A stretch of 40,311 bases of DNA from a virus. The notes under the pieces are model-generated. The model did not search any database, was not told where the DNA came from, and was given only the letters and a program-made list of their open reading frames with translations. Of this stretch, positions 3,201 through 35,510 are shown in pieces. The stretch lies in UHGV virus genome UHGV-1329780; one strand, given 5' to 3'. The position numbers and the translations under genes were made by a program. Numbering within the stretch: the stretch's first letter is position 1; each line of letters opens with the position of its first letter.

Positions 3201-5671
3201 CAGAACCCACCAACAGTAAGGCGAGGAATAACGGCAAGAACAGACAGCGGCAACGGATCAAGCTGACGGATTTTTACACGTCCGTTTTTGCCCCAGTTAC
3301 TGTCCAGTTTCACTTCTACTTTTCCGGTAGCATCATCAACAGGATCATCGTAGAACTCGAATTCACGCTGTGGATATTCGTACCATTTACCGCCGGGCGT
3401 AGTCGCCCAGATGCCGCGACTGGCATTCACAACCAGAGTAACGGACGGGATCACCTGTTTTTTGTCCAGCAGCGTTTCCTGTCCGTTAATGTTGATATCC
3501 AGTGTTTCGAATTCAGCAGTTATTGGCAGGCCGATGTGCACAACAGCCCCCGGTGATTCCAGCGTGACGGCACCTCCGGAAACCACTTTTTGTGGTTCCA
3601 CGTTCGCATCAGAGAGGATGTTTACGGTCTGGCCTTCAAGATGAGACAAGCCGCCAAATGTCCGGCGCGCCATCTGCCAGTTCGTGGTGGCCACATTCCT
3701 GAGGGATGGCGGGACGTTCCTGTTAGCACGAACCACTACTGCGGTATTGCTGGTTACAGAAATAATGTCGCAACGTAATTCTTTTGACACTTCATCGCCA
3801 GTATCAGGATCAGCTCCGGTATAAGGGAACTGTAGTTGCGCACCAACATCACTACTGGTGAAGTACGCACCACCAGAAACACTGATTGTATATTCCGCGT
3901 GGTAATCCCATTCACCAGAACCACCAGTGATGGTCATCGTTCTGTCAGACGTATTTCTTCCATCATAGCTAAGGCCAGAATCAACAAAGAAAGCATCTTC
4001 ATCGCTGGTAAATAAACGGCTGGACAGTCTCTCGATGTATCTCACTGTTTGCCCGTTAACGGTTCTGTTAACGACGAAATACACCGCATCTTCATTGCCT
4101 TCGCTGATACTGCATGTGCTTTCATATTTTCCGGTACTGGATTGTGGTGCCCATGCAAAAACCTGCTGATCACGCAAATAGGTCATCACCAGTAATTTAC
4201 CGTCATCACGAATGCAGAAGGCACTGGAGTAAGGGACAATCGAGAAGCACCAGTCAACAATGCTGTGCTTCTGAAAAAGATGATTGGCAAGGATAGTAAG
4301 GTCGTTCCCCTGATAGCCGTCAACATCGAATGAATAGGCCAGATCACGGACAACACTGCCTTTCTCCTGGACGAACAGAGCAATATTCGCCACGGCAATT
4401 GGTGGGACATTGCTCGAGCCATTTGATCCCTGAGAGCTGAATGCAAATGATGATGGGGTTAACACTTTGTTCTGGTCGCCGGTGATGACGTACTCACCTC
4501 CGGAAGTCAGCGCCACCAGAGAACCAACATCAATCAGGTGGCGGATCTCATTAACCTGACGCCCGGCATAGGTGTAGATAATTCTGTCGTCATCCTGCGT
4601 AGGATTGCTTTTGCCAAAATCCTTATAATCCCCGGTACGGCTGGCCCAGATAGTCTGAGGGAACGCAGTCGATGCGGCGAAGTAAAGACGCTGTTGATAA
4701 TAAACAACAGTGCCAGGATAACCATTAACACTGTTCCAGGCATATTTAGCCCATTTATAGCTGGCATTATCCTCGCCAACGACCTGCGAAGGGATATAGG
4801 AAATCACCTCAGCAGTTGCAGTAGTGCCATTTACAGCAGTTATACGGGCAATGCCAAAACCACTGTGCAGATACTCCCACTCAATACCAGTATCATCATC
4901 ACCGGAGCCGCCCCAGCCATCCCATGATGTGCCTTCTGTATGCGAAGGGCGCAAAGTGCCTGTTTTGCCTGCTGTAACGGCGCGATAGTAGTTACTGTCT
5001 GCACGGCGAATATCGCCAATCGACGTACTCTTACTGGTTTCCCATACCGGTACTGAATCCACTGCTGGCTGTTCCAGATAGAACAATTTGCCTACCTGCT
5101 CCGCGCCAAAAATAGAGGCGCTTGCCGTTAACGTAATTGTCCCGGTGCTGGCGCTGGCATAAACCGTCACTGACTCGTCAATATTGATATCTTCAAATGG
5201 CCCGTTCTTCGTTACCACATCAACCAGTTGCCAGTTGTCATGCGCATAGCGGCGCAACTCTTTCGGCGGGTATGCCGGATGAACCAGCGTAAGCACGTCT
5301 GCGCTTTGCGTGAATTTAATTCTGAACAGATCGGCTTCAGTATATGGCGTGGCAATTTCATAAATAACATTGCTGCTGTTCAGCACCAACGCACCATCTT
5401 TGATAACGCGCATGTACTGGTGTCCGAACTCCAGAGCATAAGTCTGAACCGTCGAGAACTGGAACGGGATCAGGCGGCATTTCCGATTTGGGTATTTGGC
5501 GGCACCGACAAAACGCGTACCAGGTCGATTCTCAACGCCGCCATACTGCCGCACGATAAAGTTATCGCACTTGCGCAATGCCACCTGGTACTTCGCCATG
5601 TCGATACGTCCGTACAACGACGGTCCAATCTCACCACCAGCAAAGCTGGGCTGGATCCAACTGATAGCCAT
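3200..5671 (-). CDS. Tail nozzle / tail tubular protein B-like protein
   Basis: 823 aa, directly downstream of the adaptor-like gene; size and position match the T7 gp12-class nozzle protein. Assignment is by synteny and size, not motif. Confidence 0.5.
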   Translation of the reverse strand: MAISWIQPSFAGGEIGPSLYGRIDMAKYQVALRKCDNFIVRQYGGVENRPGTRFVGAAKYPNRKCRLIPFQFSTVQTYALEFGHQYMRVIKDGALVLNSSNVIYEIATPYTEADLFRIKFTQSADVLTLVHPAYPPKELRRYAHDNWQLVDVVTKNGPFEDINIDESVTVYASASTGTITLTASASIFGAEQVGKLFYLEQPAVDSVPVWETSKSTSIGDIRRADSNYYRAVTAGKTGTLRPSHTEGTSWDGWGGSGDDDTGIEWEYLHSGFGIARITAVNGTTATAEVISYIPSQVVGEDNASYKWAKYAWNSVNGYPGTVVYYQQRLYFAASTAFPQTIWASRTGDYKDFGKSNPTQDDDRIIYTYAGRQVNEIRHLIDVGSLVALTSGGEYVITGDQNKVLTPSSFAFSSQGSNGSSNVPPIAVANIALFVQEKGSVVRDLAYSFDVDGYQGNDLTILANHLFQKHSIVDWCFSIVPYSSAFCIRDDGKLLVMTYLRDQQVFAWAPQSSTGKYESTCSISEGNEDAVYFVVNRTVNGQTVRYIERLSSRLFTSDEDAFFVDSGLSYDGRNTSDRTMTITGGSGEWDYHAEYTISVSGGAYFTSSDVGAQLQFPYTGADPDTGDEVSKELRCDIISVTSNTAVVVRANRNVPPSLRNVATTNWQMARRTFGGLSHLEGQTVNILSDANVEPQKVVSGGAVTLESPGAVVHIGLPITAEFETLDININGQETLLDKKQVIPSVTLVVNASRGIWATTPGGKWYEYPQREFEFYDDPVDDATGKVEVKLDSNWGKNGRVKIRQLDPLPLSVLAVIPRLTVGGF

Positions 5672-11377: not shown

Positions 11378-11445
11378 ATCAATGACTCCGTACGCAATTA
11401 AATTATTACCAATTTAACCACATATGATTTATTTATCGTAGATAG

Positions 11446-11482
11446 TTGACATTTAACGCACTAATTATTACCTTTCAGGTAA
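11446..11482 (+). promoter_or_regulatory. Candidate promoter (-35 TTGACA) with TTACC-N5-GGTAA dyad over the -10 region, upstream of the tRNA cassette
   Basis: TTGACA at 11446-11451; dyad TTACCTTTCAGGTAA at 11468-11482; AT-rich context. Confidence 0.4.
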
Positions 11483-11804
11483 GCAAAGAGTTCATTCCGG
11501 TTATTAACCTGACTGGCTTGTCGTTAAATTGAACAGGTGGGGTGAGCTTTTATTTTGAGCAGTACGGTGTATGGCACATGCGCCGATAGCGGTCTGGATA
11601 CGTTTAAGGGGCACCCTCCCTTGCTCGGGCAAACGAACCAGGTAGCCGGAATGTGCAAGTCGAGCGGTTTTATTCCGCGCACGTGGATTCACCATCCCGG
11701 CGATTCGGTGTGACACCTCGGAAGAGACGAGGGTGCAACGATGAGAGCATTTATGGAGCCGCGACAAAGTGTGGTGCCTTAACAGGCTAAGTGCTCTCAG
11801 CGTT

Positions 11805-11881
11805 GTGGCATTAGCTCAGTTGGACAGAGCAACCGCCTTCTAAGCGGTTGGTCGCAGGTTCGAATCCTGCATGCCGCGCCA
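11805..11881 (+). tRNA. tRNA-Arg (anticodon TCT, reads AGA)
   Basis: Hand-folded cloverleaf: acceptor GTGGCAT/ATGCCGC (one G-U pair), D stem GCTC/GAGC with A20 in the D loop, anticodon stem ACCGC/GCGGT, loop CTTCTAA giving anticodon TCT, T stem GCAGG/CCTGC with TTCGAAT loop, discriminator G and encoded CCA. Confidence 0.9.
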
Positions 11882-21474: not shown

Positions 21475-21537
21475 TCACCCATAAGGTAACAAAAATCAAG
21501 GATAGTTACCTATGAGGTGCATTTACCTGTTGGGTAA
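21475..21537. promoter_or_regulatory. oR-like operator cluster: three TTACC-N5-GGTAA-type dyads in the divergent intergenic region
   Basis: 21475-21489 TCACCCATAAGGTAA (variant), 21506-21520 TTACCTATGAGGTGC (variant), 21523-21537 TTACCTGTTGGGTAA (full), between the minus-strand cro-like gene and the plus-strand repressor gene. Confidence 0.55.
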
Positions 21538-21592
21538 TATTGCTTTAAATTGAATCATCTACTGATTCATATATGAGGCGATTTTCCAGAAA

Positions 21593-22177
21593 ATGAAAAG
21601 TATCCAGGACGTCCGCAGGCAAAATCTCAACGACTTGATCGACCGTGAATTCAATGGTGTTCAGACGCGGATGGCAGAAAAACTTGGAACTCAGGCAAAT
21701 CTGGTAAACCGCTGGGCTCTTGGCAAGAAGGTTATCGGCGACCAGGTTGCACGAAAAATTGAAGCTGCCGCCAATAAACCCCGTAACTGGCTTGATATTG
21801 ATCGTTCGCTTTCTCAGGAGGGTTTTCAGCCTGTCGGCCCGAGCGATATAGGTCAGCTGGCGGCTCACAACCTGGAACGCTGGATGAGCGAAAGCCGCGA
21901 CCTTTCAACACAGGGAAAACTTCACCGCGCATCCGGCGTCGCCCAGGTGACAATCAGCCGCCTGTTAAACAATGAGGTCAGCGTTTCCATTTCCACCCTG
22001 GAGAATGTTGCATCCGCATTCGGGCGTCACGGATATGAACTACTGATTCACCCGCACGACCCTGCGACTATCAACTATGACCGCTCACGCTACGCATTGT
22101 TACCCGAAACCGAGAAAGCAAAGATCGAAAGTTACATTGAATTTGTCATCAACCAGAACGAAAAAAGCAAACAATAA
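21593..22177 (+). CDS. CI-like prophage repressor with two HTH domains and no S24 peptidase domain
   Basis: 194 aa; HTH-like segments (MAEKLGTQANLVNRWALGK and ASGVAQVTISRLLNNEVSVSISTLENVASAFG); no Ser/Lys autocleavage module evident; divergent from the cro-like gene and followed by a strong terminator. Confidence 0.6.
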   Translation: MKSIQDVRRQNLNDLIDREFNGVQTRMAEKLGTQANLVNRWALGKKVIGDQVARKIEAAANKPRNWLDIDRSLSQEGFQPVGPSDIGQLAAHNLERWMSESRDLSTQGKLHRASGVAQVTISRLLNNEVSVSISTLENVASAFGRHGYELLIHPHDPATINYDRSRYALLPETEKAKIESYIEFVINQNEKSKQ

Positions 22178-22199
22178 AACTATAGTTTTCAGTAAGTAA

Positions 22200-22221
22200 G
22201 CCGCCTCATGGCGGCTTTTTT
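22200..22221 (+). terminator. Intrinsic terminator after the repressor gene
   Basis: GCCGCC-TCAT-GGCGGC hairpin followed by TTTTTT. Confidence 0.75.
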
Positions 22222-22234
22222 ATTGCCAGATAGA

Positions 22235-22311
22235 TTACCTTACGGGTAATTTTTTTAACTCATATCTATTGACACCAAACCAAATAAGCATAATTATTAC
22301 CCCAACGGTAA
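22235..22311 (+). promoter_or_regulatory. pL-like promoter with two flanking TTACC-N5-GGTAA operators
   Basis: -35 TTGACA at 22269-22274, -10-like AATTAT 17 nt downstream; dyads at 22235-22249 (TTACCTTACGGGTAA) and 22297-22311 (TTACCCCAACGGTAA). Confidence 0.55.
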
Positions 22312-29904: not shown

Positions 29905-29931
29905 CCCGCAAAATATTGCGGGCTTTTTTTT
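29905..29931 (+). terminator. Hairpin plus T8 tract at the tailspike 3' end (terminator-like on the plus strand)
   Basis: CCCGCAA-AATA-TTGCGGG followed by C and T8 on the plus strand, overlapping the tailspike stop codon region; preceded by an AT-rich 280-bp intergenic segment. Confidence 0.45.
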
Positions 29932-32900
29932 AACGTTCTTCCAGAGACTGAATCCGCTCTTTTATCTTATCCATTTCTCTGCGCTGCCATGCTGCCTCGA
30001 TATAGAATAAGAGATCAGGTCTGACCCCCCATCTAGATCCTGCTGGCGTTATTTCAACGCGCTCAATGATGTCTTCCATTACCATCACTGGATTATCATC
30101 CTCATCAACAATGATGCTCCCGTCATTATCAGTCAGCGGCATTTCCCTTTGGCCAGTAATGACATCATCATATACTGCGGGATAATCGTCATAGCAAAGA
30201 AAGGCATAGCGGCATGTTGTGCTTTCTTCTTCCATGAGTCCGTGAGAAATAAGAACATCACGAAGTTGCTGCGCGATTACACCATGATGTATCCTCGCCC
30301 CTTCTTCCCCCTTTATAGCGACAGCGTTCAGCCATTTATAAGCGATATACCTGACGTCACCCCAGGCATCCAGCAATGCTTCGTCAGGAGAGACCGGCTC
30401 TGTCTTTAATGTTCCGTCACTGGTAACCACAGGATTGGAGCCAAGATAAACTGTCGAGAACCTGTTTCCCGGACCACCAAGAGCATTTACATTATCAAGA
30501 TAAGGTTTAACATCTCCGTTCTCAAAAAGATGTTCGAGTGCGTTATATACCGCGCGACGTGGAGTACTGCTTCCGGAACCATGCAACGTTATCATTGCAC
30601 CATCTGCTGAAGACGTTGTTTCACCGCCGCTAACGATTAATCTCTGAGCGGTAACATCATCAGACGGTACTTTCTTCGCAATAATGGCGTAATTACCCTC
30701 AAGTTTGACTTCCGCGCGAACTTGTCCTGATGTACCTGCATGGACAGTCAGTGACTGGACGGCAACATCATCTGTGAAATCAACGGGTACAGGAACCGTC
30801 CTCACGCCTGACGTCGACATAAAAGTAGGAAGCGTTCTGTTAGGAGTGGCTCCGTAGACAAAATCCCTTGAAACAAATTCTTCCTGTTTAATTTTCACCC
30901 TGAAACAATACAAATCAGCCGGGTGACCATCGTGAACATAAGGATATTTTCTGTTGTTATCCCCTATGCTCCATGGGTTTAGAAAGTCTTCCCCACCGAA
31001 AATGTAGTACAGCCAGTTGTCTTTGATACAAACTGAACCAACACCAACCGCAGAGTTAACTATTCCGCCCTGATAAATCTGATCAGTAACATTAACCCAC
31101 TCTACATTATCCAGACTCCACTCATTGACGTTAACTCTGGTCATAAATGTTCTTGGATAATTTCCTGCATAACGGTTATCAGGTTCTCCTCCTTCCCACT
31201 CACCAAATGCGCGCTCACTGCCAAAAATAATCAGCTCATCGCCAACTTTGGCAAAAGGAAGGTTTGAGTGATGAACATTATTTGGGAAGCGAAGAGAATT
31301 CCATGATGTACCTAAATCAGAGCTTCTGTGCAATGAACTACCGGGTTGAGTACTTAATGTCCCCCTGGTCGTCAGATACAGAATGCCATCATAATATTTT
31401 ACACATGGCTCAGATGCATTCGCCTCATATTCTGCAGGTATGCGTCTGCGAACAAAGCTACCAGGAGAACCGAAAGCATCAGAGAAATAGAGTATCCCAA
31501 GCTCGCGTGGACCAATATCACCATTATGGTAGCCAACAGCAAAACTGTTATCGCTAATCGTCGCAAAACTGTGAATCTCAGTAACAGGAGTGCTTCCGTC
31601 AACAAAAGAAGGAATAGTTCCAAGACTGGTTTTTCTCCATGGTGACGAGTGAAATGATGTACCAAAACTCCAGTATCTACCCTCGTTATTCTGATCCACA
31701 TCCTGGGTATTTTGCGTCGTAACTGTAAAAGTATTTTTATCAATAACAGTAGTCACCGTCATATTCCCGGTAACACCTGTAACACCAGAGTTTGAGAAGT
31801 TGACAAAATCACCAGCAAATAATCCGTGATCAGTAATGCGAATATAAGCGACTTGCTGATTTGCTGCTTTCGTTATACCACCATAAACGCGAAGGCTGCG
31901 ACTCATTGGGCGATCCCACAACTCTGCAACCTGCAGTTTATTTCCGCTCACGGTCCGCGTCTCAATTACAGCAAAAAGGCGATTTCTGACAACCCCCATA
32001 CTCATGCAGTGATAGTTAACTGTGGGATAGTTTTCATGTAAATCTGTAAGCCATTCCGGCGTTGTCCAGGTCTTCCCGTCATCTCCTGAGCGAACCCATG
32101 CAACATGGAGGTTATTTACACCATGGCGGTCTCCAGCCATAAAAGGCGCATAGATGACATTGTCATATACAAACGTTTTATCCTGCGTCCAGGCGTTGTA
32201 CCACGGTGTATCTGTAATTTTAAATAACTCTCCCTGGATAAAATCTTCAGAAGCATAAAAAAGAGGCTGGCCCGGTATTCTCTCAAATAAAAAACGAGCA
32301 TTTTTAAATCGACTGACATCCGGAAGAGTTGATACTTTAAAAGTAAGCCCTAATCCGTCAATTTTATAACCTGGAGATGAGGCTTCAAGGCACGCGCTTA
32401 TTGCAGTGGAATCGTCATTTATACCATCACCAACAGCTCCAAAATCTTTGGGGCTAATAGCATCACGCATTTTATCCTGGAACGTTCGGTACACAGCCCC
32501 AGAACCATACTGAATAAACCAACCAAAACCACCAACAACCCCGGCGATTGCAGCATCGACATAATTACGCATTGAGCGATTATTTACAGCGTCCTGCTCA
32601 AATGATGGATCTGCAAGGTTAGAAATTTTGTTTTGCTTTGCATCGTAATATTTTGCAAGCAAAGATGGTTTCATCAATGCACGTCTGAACCACCCAAAAC
32701 ATTGCTGGATCAGCATCGTCAGGTAGTCAAAGGCATCTTCATGCACTTCGGGGAAAAATTTTCCCTGATTGCGAAGGTCTGTCTCCTGCACTACATCAAG
32801 CACACGATCTATCGTAATTCGCCATCCAGTAGCAAGCGGAGACGGAAGAACCACAGAACCGCCACTATAAGTGCCCGCCCCAGTTACCGTATAACCGGTA

Positions 32901-33049
32901 TCCAGAACCAATTCTGTTACGTTTCCGTTCAGGTCAGACACCTGAACAACCAGGTCTGATTTTCTGAAAATTCGAAAAGTATACGGAAACGATGTCGTAA
33001 CGCCGTTACCGGTGTATTCGTTGTGGTCAACTTCGGTTGAGACCGTCAT
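29930..33049 (-). CDS. Tailspike protein with Asp-box (sialidase-like) motifs and C-terminal intramolecular-chaperone-like domain
   Basis: 1039 aa; GGAG RBS; N-terminal particle-binding-type domain; DFGAVGDGINDDSTAI motif; Asp-box-like SGDDGKTW and SSDLGTSW; C-terminal segment with HHGVIAQQLRDVL resembling self-cleaving chaperone domains of endosialidase-type tailspikes. Confidence 0.7.
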   Translation of the reverse strand: MTVSTEVDHNEYTGNGVTTSFPYTFRIFRKSDLVVQVSDLNGNVTELVLDTGYTVTGAGTYSGGSVVLPSPLATGWRITIDRVLDVVQETDLRNQGKFFPEVHEDAFDYLTMLIQQCFGWFRRALMKPSLLAKYYDAKQNKISNLADPSFEQDAVNNRSMRNYVDAAIAGVVGGFGWFIQYGSGAVYRTFQDKMRDAISPKDFGAVGDGINDDSTAISACLEASSPGYKIDGLGLTFKVSTLPDVSRFKNARFLFERIPGQPLFYASEDFIQGELFKITDTPWYNAWTQDKTFVYDNVIYAPFMAGDRHGVNNLHVAWVRSGDDGKTWTTPEWLTDLHENYPTVNYHCMSMGVVRNRLFAVIETRTVSGNKLQVAELWDRPMSRSLRVYGGITKAANQQVAYIRITDHGLFAGDFVNFSNSGVTGVTGNMTVTTVIDKNTFTVTTQNTQDVDQNNEGRYWSFGTSFHSSPWRKTSLGTIPSFVDGSTPVTEIHSFATISDNSFAVGYHNGDIGPRELGILYFSDAFGSPGSFVRRRIPAEYEANASEPCVKYYDGILYLTTRGTLSTQPGSSLHRSSDLGTSWNSLRFPNNVHHSNLPFAKVGDELIIFGSERAFGEWEGGEPDNRYAGNYPRTFMTRVNVNEWSLDNVEWVNVTDQIYQGGIVNSAVGVGSVCIKDNWLYYIFGGEDFLNPWSIGDNNRKYPYVHDGHPADLYCFRVKIKQEEFVSRDFVYGATPNRTLPTFMSTSGVRTVPVPVDFTDDVAVQSLTVHAGTSGQVRAEVKLEGNYAIIAKKVPSDDVTAQRLIVSGGETTSSADGAMITLHGSGSSTPRRAVYNALEHLFENGDVKPYLDNVNALGGPGNRFSTVYLGSNPVVTSDGTLKTEPVSPDEALLDAWGDVRYIAYKWLNAVAIKGEEGARIHHGVIAQQLRDVLISHGLMEEESTTCRYAFLCYDDYPAVYDDVITGQREMPLTDNDGSIIVDEDDNPVMVMEDIIERVEITPAGSRWGVRPDLLFYIEAAWQRREMDKIKERIQSLEER

Positions 33050-33153
33050 GTTAAATCTCCAGATAGTCGCAGCACCCGTTGCGCCGCATATCTGGTTATT
33101 CTATTACCTGGAAAACCACATATGGATAGAAAGGCTGTAAATACGAATAGATA

Positions 33154-33168
33154 TTACCTTTCAGGTAA
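33154..33168 (+). promoter_or_regulatory. TTACC-N5-GGTAA dyad upstream of the LexA-controlled gene
   Basis: TTACCTTTCAGGTAA, identical to the dyad at 11468-11482. Confidence 0.5.
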
Positions 33169-33205
33169 TTTGCAAAACGTGCTGGATAGCAAACAAATTA
33201 TTTGA

Positions 33206-33225
33206 TACTGTATAAATATACAGTT
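33206..33225 (+). promoter_or_regulatory. LexA (SOS) box
   Basis: TACTGTATAAATATACAGTT: CTGT-N8-ACAG core at 33208-33223, 18/20 identical to the consensus TACTGTATATATATACAGTA; 20 bp upstream of ATG 33245. Confidence 0.8.
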
Positions 33226-33244
33226 ATTGCATGGAGAAGATAAG

Positions 33245-33502
33245 ATGCAGCAGTATCACTATCCACTGGAAGACGGATTTACCGAAAGGATTCACACGCC
33301 GGGAGGCGTCAGGTCACTGGTGGAGGGATCGCACTTGATGAAATTACTCCGGGATCTCGATAAGGATGGATTTAATGTCGATGGCCCACTTGCCGAACTG
33401 ACTGCACTGATTAACTACGTCACCAGCTCACAGATGTCTATGCGGGATCTGCAAACACATCTCGACTATTGTGCCGAACAATTACGAAAACAAACCAGAT
33501 AA
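33245..33502 (+). CDS. Small LexA-controlled protein homologous to the antirepressor C-terminal domain (candidate SOS-inducible antirepressor)
   Basis: 85 aa; GGAGAAG RBS; about 50 percent identical by eye over about 75 aa to the C-terminal region of the 33818-34528 product (IHTPGGV...LMKLL...DG.NVDGPLAELTAL..RDLQTH). Confidence 0.6.
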   Translation: MQQYHYPLEDGFTERIHTPGGVRSLVEGSHLMKLLRDLDKDGFNVDGPLAELTALINYVTSSQMSMRDLQTHLDYCAEQLRKQTR

Positions 33503-33533
33503 GGTTTGCAATTACCAAGTGGAGTGCTTATAT

Positions 33534-33548
33534 TTACCTTTGCGGTAA
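33534..33548 (+). promoter_or_regulatory. TTACC-N5-GGTAA dyad flanked by a 7-bp inverted repeat, upstream of a candidate promoter
   Basis: TTACCTTTGCGGTAA flanked by GGAGTGC/GCACTCC; followed by TTTACA (-35-like) and TAGTAAT (-10-like). Confidence 0.45.
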
Positions 33549-33639
33549 ATTTACATCGCACTCCTCTTGTGCCATAGTAATCGGGCACTGGCAAAATCCA
33601 GTGCCGGGATTGGCGTCCCGGGTTACTAAGTGGCGCATA

Positions 33640-33661
33640 CCACGCCAGACGTGGTTTTTTT
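33640..33661 (+). terminator. Intrinsic terminator/attenuator between the two antirepressor-like genes
   Basis: CCACG-CCAGA-CGTGG hairpin followed by T7; preceded by two further hairpins. Confidence 0.6.
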
Positions 33662-33817
33662 ATGCGTTAAGCACAGCTATATCCGAATTATGGTGGGCTG
33701 GGCAGGGGTCCGAAAGGACGCCGGTACCACTTAGGCCGGTACGCCAACCTTGTCCAGTTCACCACCAGTAATTGGCGTTGCGGTGGTGATTAAAATCACT
33801 AAGTGGAGATAACCACC

Positions 33818-34528
33818 ATGGCTAATGCTCAAACTTCCATCTTCAAATTTGAATCTGTTAACCCTATCCGTTCCATCATTATCGATGGCCAACCATGGTT
33901 TGTAGCCCAAGACGTTTGTAGTGCGCTGCGTATCCAAAACGTCACCCAAGCACTTGAAAAACTGGATGATGATGAAAGGTCTATGTTCAACATAGGGCAT
34001 GAACATCGTGCAATTTTTGACAGCCGAGTAAAAGAGATCAACATCATCTCCGAGTCAGGCCTCTACACACTGATCCTCCGCTGCCGCGACGCAGTGACAC
34101 CAGGCACTATCCCCTACCGCTTTCGTAAATGGGTTACGGGTGAGGTTCTTCCTCAGATCCGCCGCACCGGAAGCTACATTAAAAACTCGCTCCCGCAGGA
34201 AGAACGCATAAAGATGGTTGCCGACCAGGTAGCCAACGCCACGGCGTCAGCAGTAATGCAGGCGATGAAGATAGAGAACAAAACCTACAGCGCCCCACTG
34301 AAGCCCGGCTACCGCAGCCTGATTCATTCGCCGTCTGGTGTTCTCGGCCTGACGGAGAACTCACTGCTGATGAATCTGCTGAACCAGTTACAGGACGACG
34401 GGCACGACGTATCGGGCGCGGCGGCGGAGCTGACCACCATGTTCTGCTACATCGTCGGTGTGAGCAAATGCCTGCGTGATATCCAGACCCACGCGGAATA
34501 CATCAACGACAAGGCAGGGTTCTTCTGA
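33818..34528 (+). CDS. Bro-N domain antirepressor-like protein
   Basis: About 236 aa from ATG 33818 (GGAG RBS); N-terminal FKFESVNPIRSIIIDGQPWFVAQDVCSAL...ESGLYTLIL is a typical Bro-N pattern; C-terminal domain paralogous to the small protein at 33245-33502. Confidence 0.7.
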   Translation: MANAQTSIFKFESVNPIRSIIIDGQPWFVAQDVCSALRIQNVTQALEKLDDDERSMFNIGHEHRAIFDSRVKEINIISESGLYTLILRCRDAVTPGTIPYRFRKWVTGEVLPQIRRTGSYIKNSLPQEERIKMVADQVANATASAVMQAMKIENKTYSAPLKPGYRSLIHSPSGVLGLTENSLLMNLLNQLQDDGHDVSGAAAELTTMFCYIVGVSKCLRDIQTHAEYINDKAGFF

Positions 34529-34571
34529 CGGGCGGTGGCACAGGGATGTGCCTTTAAATAATTCTGTACAG

Positions 34572-34615
34572 ATTGCAGACTGTGGGTGAATAGCGTACTA
34601 TTACCTTAAAGGTAA
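34572..34615 (+). promoter_or_regulatory. Candidate promoter (TTGCAG-N17-TACTAT) with TTACC-N5-GGTAA dyad at the transcript start
   Basis: Dyad TTACCTTAAAGGTAA at 34601-34615 immediately upstream of an AGGAGG RBS and ATG 34628. Confidence 0.45.
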
Positions 34616-34627
34616 AGGAGGCGCGAT

Positions 34628-34795
34628 ATGACAGCGTTGAAAAATCGTACTCAGCACAATGAACAAGCCAAGCAATGCTGGGATGTCATTGGAAAAGTTA
34701 TGCTTGGCCGCGCAAGCAAAGAGCGCGACAAGGATATGGTTTACCAGACAGGAACATCTTTCAGCGACTTCAAGGCGGCATTTCGCTCCAAATAG
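34628..34795 (+). CDS. Small protein, first gene of a two-gene moron
   Basis: 55 aa (below the ORF-track cutoff); strong AGGAGG RBS at spacing 7; stop 20 nt before the next start. Confidence 0.45.
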   Translation: MTALKNRTQHNEQAKQCWDVIGKVMLGRASKERDKDMVYQTGTSFSDFKAAFRSK

Positions 34796-34815
34796 AAGCA
34801 CATCAGGAGTTTTCC

Positions 34816-35256
34816 TTGAAGTTTAACATTAGAATATCTAATAGTTTTCTACATGGGGAAAGCAACACCCCTTTCGCTGTAGACGGACCTTTCCTTACTG
34901 ATGATGAAATAAAAATCATACAAAGTTTTTTAGAGGATGTTGCCAATGGAAGGGCGCTTGTTGGAAAAAACAAGCCCTCGTGGGTTGATGATAACCATGA
35001 TAAAATTCCCGGCTCAGACAATTATGAGCAAGAGAATTATTGGCATTATCATTGTGGGCCAACATGGTATCCAAACACATTTAAGAATTATACCATTAAC
35101 TTAAATTTCAACCCTGGCGGAAGGCATTCTAATGAATGCATTCATTATGCAAAAAATGATAATGAAATTGTCATTGTTGGATTTTCAAGAGAACACATAC
35201 CTTTCCTTTCATCAGATGGAAACAACAATCCGCTTTTTAATGATGAAGAAGAATAG
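34816..35256 (+). CDS. AT-rich moron protein of unknown function (Asn/Asp-rich, acidic C-terminus)
   Basis: About 146 aa from TTG 34816 (AGGAG at spacing 6); AT-rich relative to flanking late genes; followed immediately by an intrinsic terminator; no family recognised by eye. Confidence 0.5.
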   Translation: MKFNIRISNSFLHGESNTPFAVDGPFLTDDEIKIIQSFLEDVANGRALVGKNKPSWVDDNHDKIPGSDNYEQENYWHYHCGPTWYPNTFKNYTINLNFNPGGRHSNECIHYAKNDNEIVIVGFSREHIPFLSSDGNNNPLFNDEEE

Positions 35257-35276
35257 CCCGCGCTGCGGGCTTTTTT
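35256..35276 (+). terminator. Intrinsic terminator after the moron
   Basis: GCCCGC-GCT-GCGGGC hairpin followed by TTTTTT. Confidence 0.75.
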
Positions 35277-35348
35277 GTGGACGAAACAAAAGTCAGTGCT
35301 ACACTCATTGACGCCACATTGAGGTGGCTTATAGATGGAAATTTCACA

Positions 35349-35510
35349 ATGAAAAAAGCATTTGCTGCACTGTTCGTTTTGTTGTCTCTGGTAGCTTCAA
35401 CTCAGGCCTTTGCCGGTCGTTGTCAGCACGACAGCGACACTGCTGCTGACGGCTCCCGCTGCGGTGGGCGTTCTGCGGACTCCCGTCCGGGCGGCGGTGG
35501 CATTCGTTAA
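35349..35510 (+). CDS. Candidate small secreted peptide
   Basis: 53 aa; N-terminal signal-peptide-like MKKAFAALFVLLSLVASTQAFA then a Gly/Arg/Asp-rich segment with two Cys; weak RBS, so the call is tentative. Confidence 0.3.
   Translation: MKKAFAALFVLLSLVASTQAFAGRCQHDSDTAADGSRCGGRSADSRPGGGGIR

Follow-up and report, generated by a model that had tools for sequence, protein, structure and literature searches.

The stretch of DNA analysed here, hereafter the window, is the whole 40,311 nucleotide (nt) virus genome UHGV-1329780. Our subject is the locus at positions 33,154 to 34,528, where a LexA (SOS) box precedes a small gene, ant, and a spacer separates ant from a longer gene, bro-antC, whose product carries a Bro-N domain. 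The region had been singled out in a first-pass annotation made from the sequence alone, which put the Bro-N gene 300 bp downstream of the small gene; the spacer measures 315 bp. It holds a predicted RNA module of the type found at immI of phages P1 and P7, which the first-pass annotation had missed, and the repressor on which both gene products would act, Rep, is encoded elsewhere in the window. The features are collected in Table 1.

Table 1. Features of the ant/bro-antC locus, the rep region and the adjoining accessory segment, in window coordinates; protein lengths are in amino acids (aa).
Feature	Position and motif	Strand	Description or basis
Four dyads flanking rep	21475, 21523, 22235, 22297 (21475-22311)	.	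two on each side; likely operators, divergent and rightward early promoters
rep	21593-22177	+	194 aa; immunity repressor, orthologue of SPC32H Rep
Dyad ATTACCTTTCAGGTAAT	33153-33169	.	between the divergent tailspike and ant genes
Candidate ant promoter	-35 TGGATA 33183-33188, 17 bp spacer, -10 TACTGT 33206-33211	+	putative
LexA (SOS) box TACTGTATAAATATACAGTT	33206-33225	.	2/20 mismatches to consensus
ant	33245-33502	+	85 aa; antirepressor, orthologue of SPC32H Ant
Pa, c4 operon	TTGCAA 33506 / TATATT 33529-33534	+	promoter scan
c4-operon dyad ATTTACC-TTTGC-GGTAAAT	33532-33550	.	overlaps Pa -10, abuts Pb -35
Pb, c4 operon	TTTACA 33550 / CATAGT 33573-33578	+	promoter scan
IsrK-like / c4-a1b1 RNA	33572-33662	+	Rfam; terminator scan; fold
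a1	TTGGCGT, 33610-33616	+	in hairpin loop
b1	CTAAGTGG, 33626-33633	+	exact complement of b'
Intrinsic terminator after a1/b1	33639-33662	+	terminator scan
C4 antisense RNA	33686-33769	+	Rfam RF01695, 66 bits (gathering score 45)
b' loop of C4	CCACTTAG, 33727-33734	+	sequence reading
a' of C4	ACGCCAA, 33741-33747	+	exact complement of a1 and a2
a2	TTGGCGT, 33772-33778	+	C4 target (predicted)
b2	CTAAGTGG, 33799-33806	+	C4 target (predicted); exact complement of b'
bro-antC	33818-34528	+	236 aa; Bro-N (aa 17-112) and Ant-like C-terminal domain (aa ~153-234, nt 34274-34519)
Third dyad-bearing promoter	TTGCAG 34573 / TACTAT 34596; dyad 34600-34616	+	upstream of orf55 and orf146
orf55	34628-34795	+	55 aa; phrog_8607, function unassigned
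orf146	34816-35256	+	146 aa, TTG start 34816; phrog_5954, function unassigned
Intrinsic terminator after orf146	35255-35271	+	terminator scan

Both Ant and Rep have counterparts of solved structure in the Salmonella phage SPC32H, whose record annotates the two genes as ant and rep: PDB entry 5D50 is the Rep-Ant complex and 5D4Z the C-terminal domain of Rep. The product of ant matches chain E of 5D50 ('Anti-repressor protein', the 86-aa Ant) over residues 2-84 (E=1.4e-46) as well as phrog_450 (E=7e-48), and is 86.7% identical to SPC32H ant by tblastn; Pfam and NCBIfam searches gave nothing significant for it, the sole Pfam match being DUF724 at 17 bits, far under the cut-off. Rep is matched by chain A ('Repressor') over residues 1-190 (E=3.5e-42), and its C-terminal half aligns to 5D4Z, i.e., the tetramerisation domain at Rep 92-198. 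It is 42.7% identical to SPC32H Rep and 99.5% identical to Rep of phiV10 and ZX5, and the Rep and Ant genes are both present in the same 35-36 phage records. The first-pass annotation had described a CI-like repressor with two helix-turn-helix (HTH) domains and no visible S24 module, and this description holds: in Pfam, Rep matches HTH families only (HTH_3 at 106-147, with a weak second HTH at 21-61) and gives no Peptidase_S24 match at E<=0.1.

The Rep/Ant system of SPC32H is said to have been described by Kim & Ryu in J Virol in 2013 and by Kim et al. in PNAS in 2016. According to PMC7380047, SOS induction and LexA self-cleavage in SPC32H lead to the production of Ant, which inactivates the repressor by direct contact. 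Two further sources add that Rep on DNA is a tetramer, which is broken when an Ant tetramer binds two Rep dimers (PMC9638917), and that the Rep C-terminal domain serves tetramerisation as well as Ant binding (PMC9986798). By homology, ant and rep of the window correspond to this LexA-Ant-Rep switch, which is already characterised genetically, biochemically and structurally in the sister phage. Since Rep has no autocleavage domain, Ant would be the route of SOS induction, and the earlier prediction of induction through a LexA-derepressed antirepressor, not through repressor cleavage, is upheld by the orthology of both proteins to a pair for which that mechanism is experimentally and structurally established.

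The LexA box upstream of ant has perfect CTGT/ACAG arms, both departures from the E. coli LexA consensus, TACTGTATATATATACAGTA, lying outside them. It is the sole match to this consensus in the window at up to 3 mismatches, with 0 expected from 100 window shuffles. It ends 19 nt 5' of the ant ATG at 33245, from which it is separated by a Shine-Dalgarno sequence, GGAG, at 33233-33236; the near-consensus SOS box that had been reported 20 bp upstream of the 85-aa gene is therefore real. Its position before the ant homologue is kept in phiV10, SPC32H and Tyrion, where the arms are retained and the centre differs, and in SPC32H it is the only LexA-like box. The exact form ACTGT-N8-ACAGT occurs in 6 related phages and one E. 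coli prophage; two Klebsiella relatives have ATGT instead of CTGT as the left arm (one core mismatch), and a search for the exact form in a third, Kp4865-1, gave no match.

For the promoter of ant, TGGATA-17-TACTGT is the only pair of hexamers conserved in both sequence and spacing among the window, phiV10, SPC32H and Tyrion, the Klebsiella relatives having TGGAAA-17-TATATG. With this candidate, the LexA box would cover the -10 and the transcription start of ant. Two other candidates were rejected: TTGATA (33202) with TATTGC, whose start would fall past the Shine-Dalgarno sequence and whose -10 lacks conservation, and TTGCAA (33170) with a 17-bp spacer, which has no usable -10. The AT-rich surroundings and the unclear -10 and -35 hexamers could be taken to mean that the box is a chance palindrome and ant is not SOS-regulated at all, or one could suppose that Rep cleaves itself on RecA stimulation. 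Both ideas strike us as highly improbable, given that no match was expected by chance, that the arms are conserved around a variable centre across genera, and that SPC32H, for which LexA control is reported, has the same box in this position. Against self-cleavage, Rep lacks an S24 domain and is homologous to a repressor whose inactivation by Ant is structurally solved.

The second gene joins Bro-N (PF02498; 71.5 bits against a gathering score of 25.6, E=1e-19 in Pfam) to a C-terminal domain, here called Ant-like, that matches 5D50_E (E=2.2e-13) and phrog_450 (E=6e-36); the protein also matches phrog_130. Pairwise, Ant and residues 155-228 of Bro-AntC align without a gap at 43% identity over 74 aa (E=3e-16), and 22 alignment columns are invariant across Ant and the Ant-like domain of Bro-AntC (AntC). 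The first-pass annotation had estimated about 50% identity between the small protein and the C-terminus of the Bro-N protein, and had proposed a pairwise alignment and profile searches as a check: these confirm the paralogy and add homology to 5D50_E, and the figure itself was too high. An alternative start of the Bro gene, GTG at 33803, was rejected, as the ATG at 33818 is invariant in 9 phages and is preceded by GGAGA. An AlphaFold2 model of Bro-AntC, built on a 14-row alignment, was poor (mean predicted local distance difference test, pLDDT, 52; predicted template modelling score, pTM, 0.29) and reached 67-79 only over the last 50 residues.

No Pfam model covers the Ant-like domain. A profile search of 1.84 billion representative proteins found only 65 clusters (50% identity), so the family is small. 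This exhaustive search with a hidden Markov model was more informative than a word-indexed search with AntC, which gave mostly fragments and missed full-length Bro fusions. The domain is found alone (85-95 aa) or C-terminal to Bro-N, AntA, Phage_pRha or ORF6N, and the named family members seen are all from Enterobacterales; proteins that carry it include P0158, P0167, P0212 and P0215, and free 95-aa forms occur in Klebsiella and Raoultella. It appears to be the mobile effector domain of modular antirepressors. P0158 has an AntA N-terminal domain in front of a C-terminal domain nearly identical to that of the window, which points to a recent N-terminal swap around a retained C-terminal part and fits the latter as effector. 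Bro-AntC of phage ZX5 is 81% identical to that of the window, and overexpression of the ZX5 Bro-N homologue lowered the prophage titre from 1e9 to 1e6, i.e., lysogeny by 1000-fold, and repressor transcription by 75% (PMC9782041). The ZX5 paper mentions none of the small Ant, the shared domain or the RNAs (PMC9782041). The earlier suggestion that the shared C-terminal domain is the functional module thus gains indirect support, from its standalone occurrence, its four N-terminal partners, the AntA swap and the ZX5 overexpression.

It is conceivable that AntC has kept only the oligomerisation (tetramer) core of Ant, and that Bro-AntC targets another repressor or a host protein, or mixes with Ant and modulates it. 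The 43% identity would allow this, when phages with 43% identity in Rep still show 87% conservation in Ant itself, and so would the occurrence of the domain behind Bro-N, AntA, Rha and ORF6N in various prophages. Moreover, antirepressors acting in trans between prophages are documented for Gifsy and Fels (reportedly in PMC3121763, as summarised in PMC7380047). We nevertheless regard it as unlikely: 22 columns are invariant across Ant and AntC, Bro-AntC was found among the phage records searched only where this type of Rep and Ant is also present, and overexpression of the ZX5 homologue lowered the lysogeny of ZX5 itself (PMC9782041). A shared Rep-binding domain is the reading we carry forward.

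Between the two genes, the Rfam isrK model matches 33585-33661 at 67.7 bits (gathering score 50) and covers the same hairpins as the c4-a1b1 model plus the terminator. The C4 RNA that follows folds with a minimum free energy of -43.6 kcal/mol (z=-5.0) and shows 7 compensatory pairs among 8 homologous sequences. Its b2 target overlaps the Shine-Dalgarno sequence of bro-antC, GGAGA (33805-33809). Across 9 phages, a1, a' and a2 co-vary as three types (TTGGCGT/ACGCCAA, TTGGTCT/AGACCAA and TTGAGAC/GTCTCAA), and b1, b' and b2 as four, with b2 on the Shine-Dalgarno sequence in all. Computed duplexes of b' with b2 reach -8.6 to -12.6 kcal/mol for cognate pairs and about -3 to -9 for non-cognate ones; for a' with a2 the ranges are -9 to -12.5 and -0.5 to -4.9 kcal/mol, respectively. 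Taken on comparative grounds, there is strong evidence that C4 would act on the a and b sites.

The isrK and C4 elements lie directly 5' of the Bro-N::AntC gene in 8/8 relatives fetched, in two of which the gene is N-terminally truncated or frameshifted, and SPC32H has no Bro-N::AntC gene and neither RNA. The window has no icd-like open reading frame (ORF) and no ORF at all between 33769 and 33818. A 100-aa ORF at 33469-33771 that spans the RNA module was taken as spurious, and a weak Trp_leader match at 35172-35278 (E=0.34) as chance. In TL-2011b (869-1957) and EC.W1-9 (639-1554), ant and the RNA module are separated by about 1.1 kb with minus-strand annotation: EC.W1-9 has two genes there, and TL-2011b one misc_feature, 'similar to hypothetical protein'. 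Transcriptional read-through from ant into a1/b1 is therefore not conserved.

A dyad of the form TTACC-N5-GGTAA, with up to one mismatch, occurs at 14 sites in the window against 0.67 expected (starts 11468, 12085, 14987, 15005, 19174, 19236, 21475, 21523, 22235, 22297, 27551, 33154, 33534 and 34601), and most of these overlap or abut a -10-like hexamer. SPC32H has 18 against 0.75 expected; its rep gene is flanked by three on either side, and another stands between the tailspike gene and ant. The dyad is most likely the operator of Rep, to judge from its distribution. Genome-wide, dyads stand at about 10 promoter regions, including those before structural and terminase genes, and several are paired 18-62 bp apart. 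It seems that many separate operons are held directly by a single repressor, as by C1 in phage P1, in place of one early-to-late cascade, and the pairing may relate to the binding of Rep as a tetramer.

At the locus itself, the dyad between the tailspike gene and ant recurs in phiV10, SPC32H and Tyrion, its centre differing among them. It precedes the likely transcription start of ant by about 50-65 bp, and no convincing promoter, for either ant or the tailspike gene, would put it over a -10 or +1. The dyad of the c4 operon has invariant arms and a variable centre in the 9 phages, and the -10 region of Pb, TTGTGCCATAGT, is invariant in 9/9. The first-pass annotation had assigned ant to LexA plus a dyad and bro-antC to a dyad alone. 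Of this, the LexA box stands; the dyad before ant is present, with its control of that gene doubtful at such a distance; and 'dyad alone' does not hold for bro-antC, which is preceded by the IsrK-like RNA, its terminator and C4.

Taken together, we think it likely that the locus is an antirepressor region in which two antirepressor genes built on the same Rep-binding domain answer to two different triggers. In the lysogen, host LexA would sit on the SOS box, overlapping the likely -10 and start of the ant promoter. DNA damage would cause LexA to cleave itself and Ant to be made, and, as in SPC32H, an Ant tetramer would bind two Rep dimers, breaking the Rep tetramer and taking it off its operators. 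From the RNA elements and the co-variation that we observe, we infer that the second gene is regulated in the manner of ant in phage P1, as follows. A promoter overlapped by a Rep-type operator would transcribe the IsrK-like RNA with its decoy sites a1 and b1; most of this transcript probably ends at the terminator, and read-through would yield the C4 antisense RNA and then the bro-antC message. Pairing of a'/b' of C4 with a2/b2 would hide the Shine-Dalgarno sequence, so that no Bro-AntC is made while C4 is in excess. Once Rep is removed by Ant, the operator-controlled promoter would fire, the a1/b1 and a2/b2 sites would come to outnumber C4, and Bro-AntC would form a second wave that is independent of LexA. 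As the terminator scan found none between the ant stop codon and the IsrK terminator, SOS-induced ant transcripts may also carry a1/b1 and help to titrate C4.

Several observations weigh against this picture. AntC is only 43% identical to Ant, and the binding of Ant to Rep in the window phage is presumed by transfer from SPC32H, to whose Rep the window Rep is only 42.7% identical. A consensus promoter scan upstream of ant found none, and the candidate hexamers are weak. The Rfam match to c4-a1b1 (33572-33624) scores 44.1 bits, just under its gathering score of 46.7. If both promoters of the c4 operon are shut by Rep, C4 would be absent in the lysogen and a role in RNA-based immunity would fail. 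The module of bro-antC and RNAs is dispensable, as SPC32H does without it, and in the phiV10 record (3716-4398) the Bro-N gene is frameshifted within the Ant-like domain, which is either a true inactivation or a sequencing error. What is one intact 236-aa protein in the window is thus represented in phiV10 by two annotated ORFs, p23 (194 aa) and p22 (29 aa).

Because the specificity of C4 differs among phages with the same Rep, the module would also confer a second, RNA-based specificity of superinfection immunity. A related explanation, compatible with the one above, is that Bro-AntC serves mainly as an anti-immunity weapon in superinfection, as in the bipartite immunity of P1/P7 and P22, and not as a second wave after SOS. 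A resident C4 would then silence an incoming bro-antC only if it is of the same a'/b' type; a phage of another C4 type that enters with the same Rep would express Bro-AntC, inactivate the resident Rep and grow. The heteroimmunity of P1 and P7 by c4 type is reportedly a precedent. In keeping with this, five E. coli phages with 99-100% identical Rep have four a'/b' combinations (the window; phiV10/TL-2011b; phiv142-3; EC.W1-9), their target sites carry the matching changes, and the cognate and non-cognate duplex energies lie clearly apart. Furthermore, Gifsy-1 lysogens transcribe IsrK at a high level in every condition tested (PMC7067206). Set against these points, a Rep-type operator overlaps the Pa -10 and abuts the Pb -35, which makes the supply of C4 in a lysogen uncertain, and the comparison covers nine sequences only. 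Such a principal role in superinfection is possible, if rather doubtful.

Combining these strands with the two-trigger reading, we tentatively propose, as something quite possible, that the Uetakeviruses of E. coli, Enterobacter and Klebsiella have a bipartite immunity. One Rep-binding domain would be used twice, in Ant under LexA and in Bro-AntC under C4; C4 specificities would have diversified among phages with identical Rep; the decoy and Bro-AntC would lock the switch after SOS; and the SPC32H Ant structure would define the effector domain of Bro-N, AntA, Rha and ORF6N antirepressors. If so, phages that are homoimmune by repressor would be heteroimmune in practice, and the crystal structure of Ant could be used to read the targets of the modular antirepressor family. 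If this is confirmed, knowing the repressor would not be enough to predict superinfection immunity and cross-induction among these common prophages; several phages that convert the serotype of O157 and other pathogenic E. coli are among them.

To judge by its sequence, the window phage is a Uetakevirus, i.e., a temperate podophage of the epsilon15/phiV10 type. The best match of window 33100-34900 is Escherichia phage HEMP4, with 97.7% DNA identity over the full length, and phiV10, TL-2011b, ZX5 and the O157 typing phages match the same stretch at 92-95% over about 70%. The gene order is that of these Uetakeviruses, with the tailspike gene on the minus strand, a small gene on the plus strand and then the structural operon on the minus strand; the order of tailspike (-) and ant (+) is common to the window and SPC32H. 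The tailspike gene (29930-33049, minus strand) encodes 1039 aa with End_N_terminal, End_beta_propel (E=1e-233), End_beta_barrel and End_tail_spike domains and a Peptidase_S74 chaperone domain. By these domains it is an endosialidase, so the K1 (polysialic acid) capsule should be the target of the phage. Other tail fibres occupy this position in phiV10, SPC32H and Tyrion. A tRNA-Arg gene (anticodon TCT) at 11805-11881 lies on the plus strand, opposite to the surrounding structural genes, with a dyad-bearing TTGACA promoter (~11440-11485) upstream; SPC32H has the same tRNA.

Downstream of bro-antC, the segment with orf55 and orf146 (34573-35271) is accessory cargo, outside the switch proper; Pfam and NCBIfam searches with the orf146 product gave no match. 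It is followed by a gene for a 53-aa signal-peptide protein at 35349-35510 on the plus strand (phrog_14503, 'moron, membrane associated'), and relatives have other genes at this position, e.g., one for a DUF2335 protein. The accessory genes at 34573-35510 are possibly lysogenic-conversion or defence genes. Among 5426 complete E. coli genomes, 534 have a match to the locus, which covers at least 80% of its length in 207 of them. RefSeq labels in E. coli give ant as 'hypothetical protein' and the second gene as 'BRO-N domain-containing protein', and leave both RNAs unannotated, e.g., in the XH992 chromosome. This work is of some practical use for the annotation of ant, bro-antC and the IsrK-like and C4 RNAs in common E. 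coli prophages.

The LexA-Ant-Rep switch is nothing new, and the second module belongs to the known C4/IsrK class; what is modestly new is their combination, in which one effector domain serves both an SOS-controlled and an antisense-RNA-controlled antirepressor. In the literature searched we found no description of the pairing of the modules, the shared effector domain or the diversification of C4 in Rep-identical phages, nor does public annotation show them. SPC32H and the window have in common the orthologous Ant and Rep, an ant gene adjoining the tailspike gene, the position of the LexA box, TTACC-N5-GGTAA dyads around rep and a repressor with no cleavage domain. However, SPC32H has ant only, with a bidirectional terminator directly after it, and neither C4/IsrK RNA nor a Bro-N gene, whereas the window has about 2 kb more, made up of the RNA module, bro-antC and three small accessory genes.

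The anatomy of immI in P1/P7 was reportedly laid out by Citron & Schuster in 1990 and by Biere et al. in 1992, and c4 types are said, by the former, to define heteroimmunity. The P1 operon is summarised in PMC8201110. With immI (c4 - icd - ant1/2), as with the related anti-immunity region of N15, the window shares the C4 fold (RF01695). Further likenesses to immI are the a1/b1 sites upstream and a2/b2 downstream, b2 on a ribosome-binding site, a repressor-controlled promoter with an antirepressor gene downstream, and specificity types that shift by matched changes in RNA and targets; the Bro-N domain is 44% identical to N15 gp30 Ant. Unlike P1, the window lacks an icd-like ORF, b2 lying instead over the antirepressor gene's own Shine-Dalgarno sequence, the antirepressor C-terminal domain is of the SPC32H Ant type and unrelated to P1 Ant, and the master repressor is a Rep-type HTH protein, not C1.

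The logic of an SOS box and a small antirepressor acting against a non-cleavable repressor is also that of Tum in coliphage 186 and Fels-2 and of GfoA/GfhA/GftA in Gifsy phages (PMC7380047, PMC7067206). In Pfam and NCBIfam searches, no sequence relationship was detected between Ant of the window and either Tum/DinI or the Gifsy antirepressors; Ant would work like Tum and is not a member of its family. The second module has a parallel of another kind in IsrK-orf45-AnrP of Gifsy-1, with which it shares the isrK match and a terminated small RNA (sRNA) with read-through into a gene for an antirepressor. The segment between the two is described in Gifsy-1 as orf45, translated and coupled to anrP, whereas in the window that frame closes after 14 codons, and the link to AntQ has no counterpart in the window. 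Gifsy-1 makes the short terminated IsrK sRNA and a read-through mRNA, the downstream antirepressor AnrP being transcribed and left untranslated (Hershko-Shalev et al. 2016, PMC4825925), and IsrK in trans switches on translation of anrP by pairing with the segment that separates this gene from isrK (PMC4825925). By analogy, this trans-activation fits what titration of a C4-like segment by a1/b1 would give.

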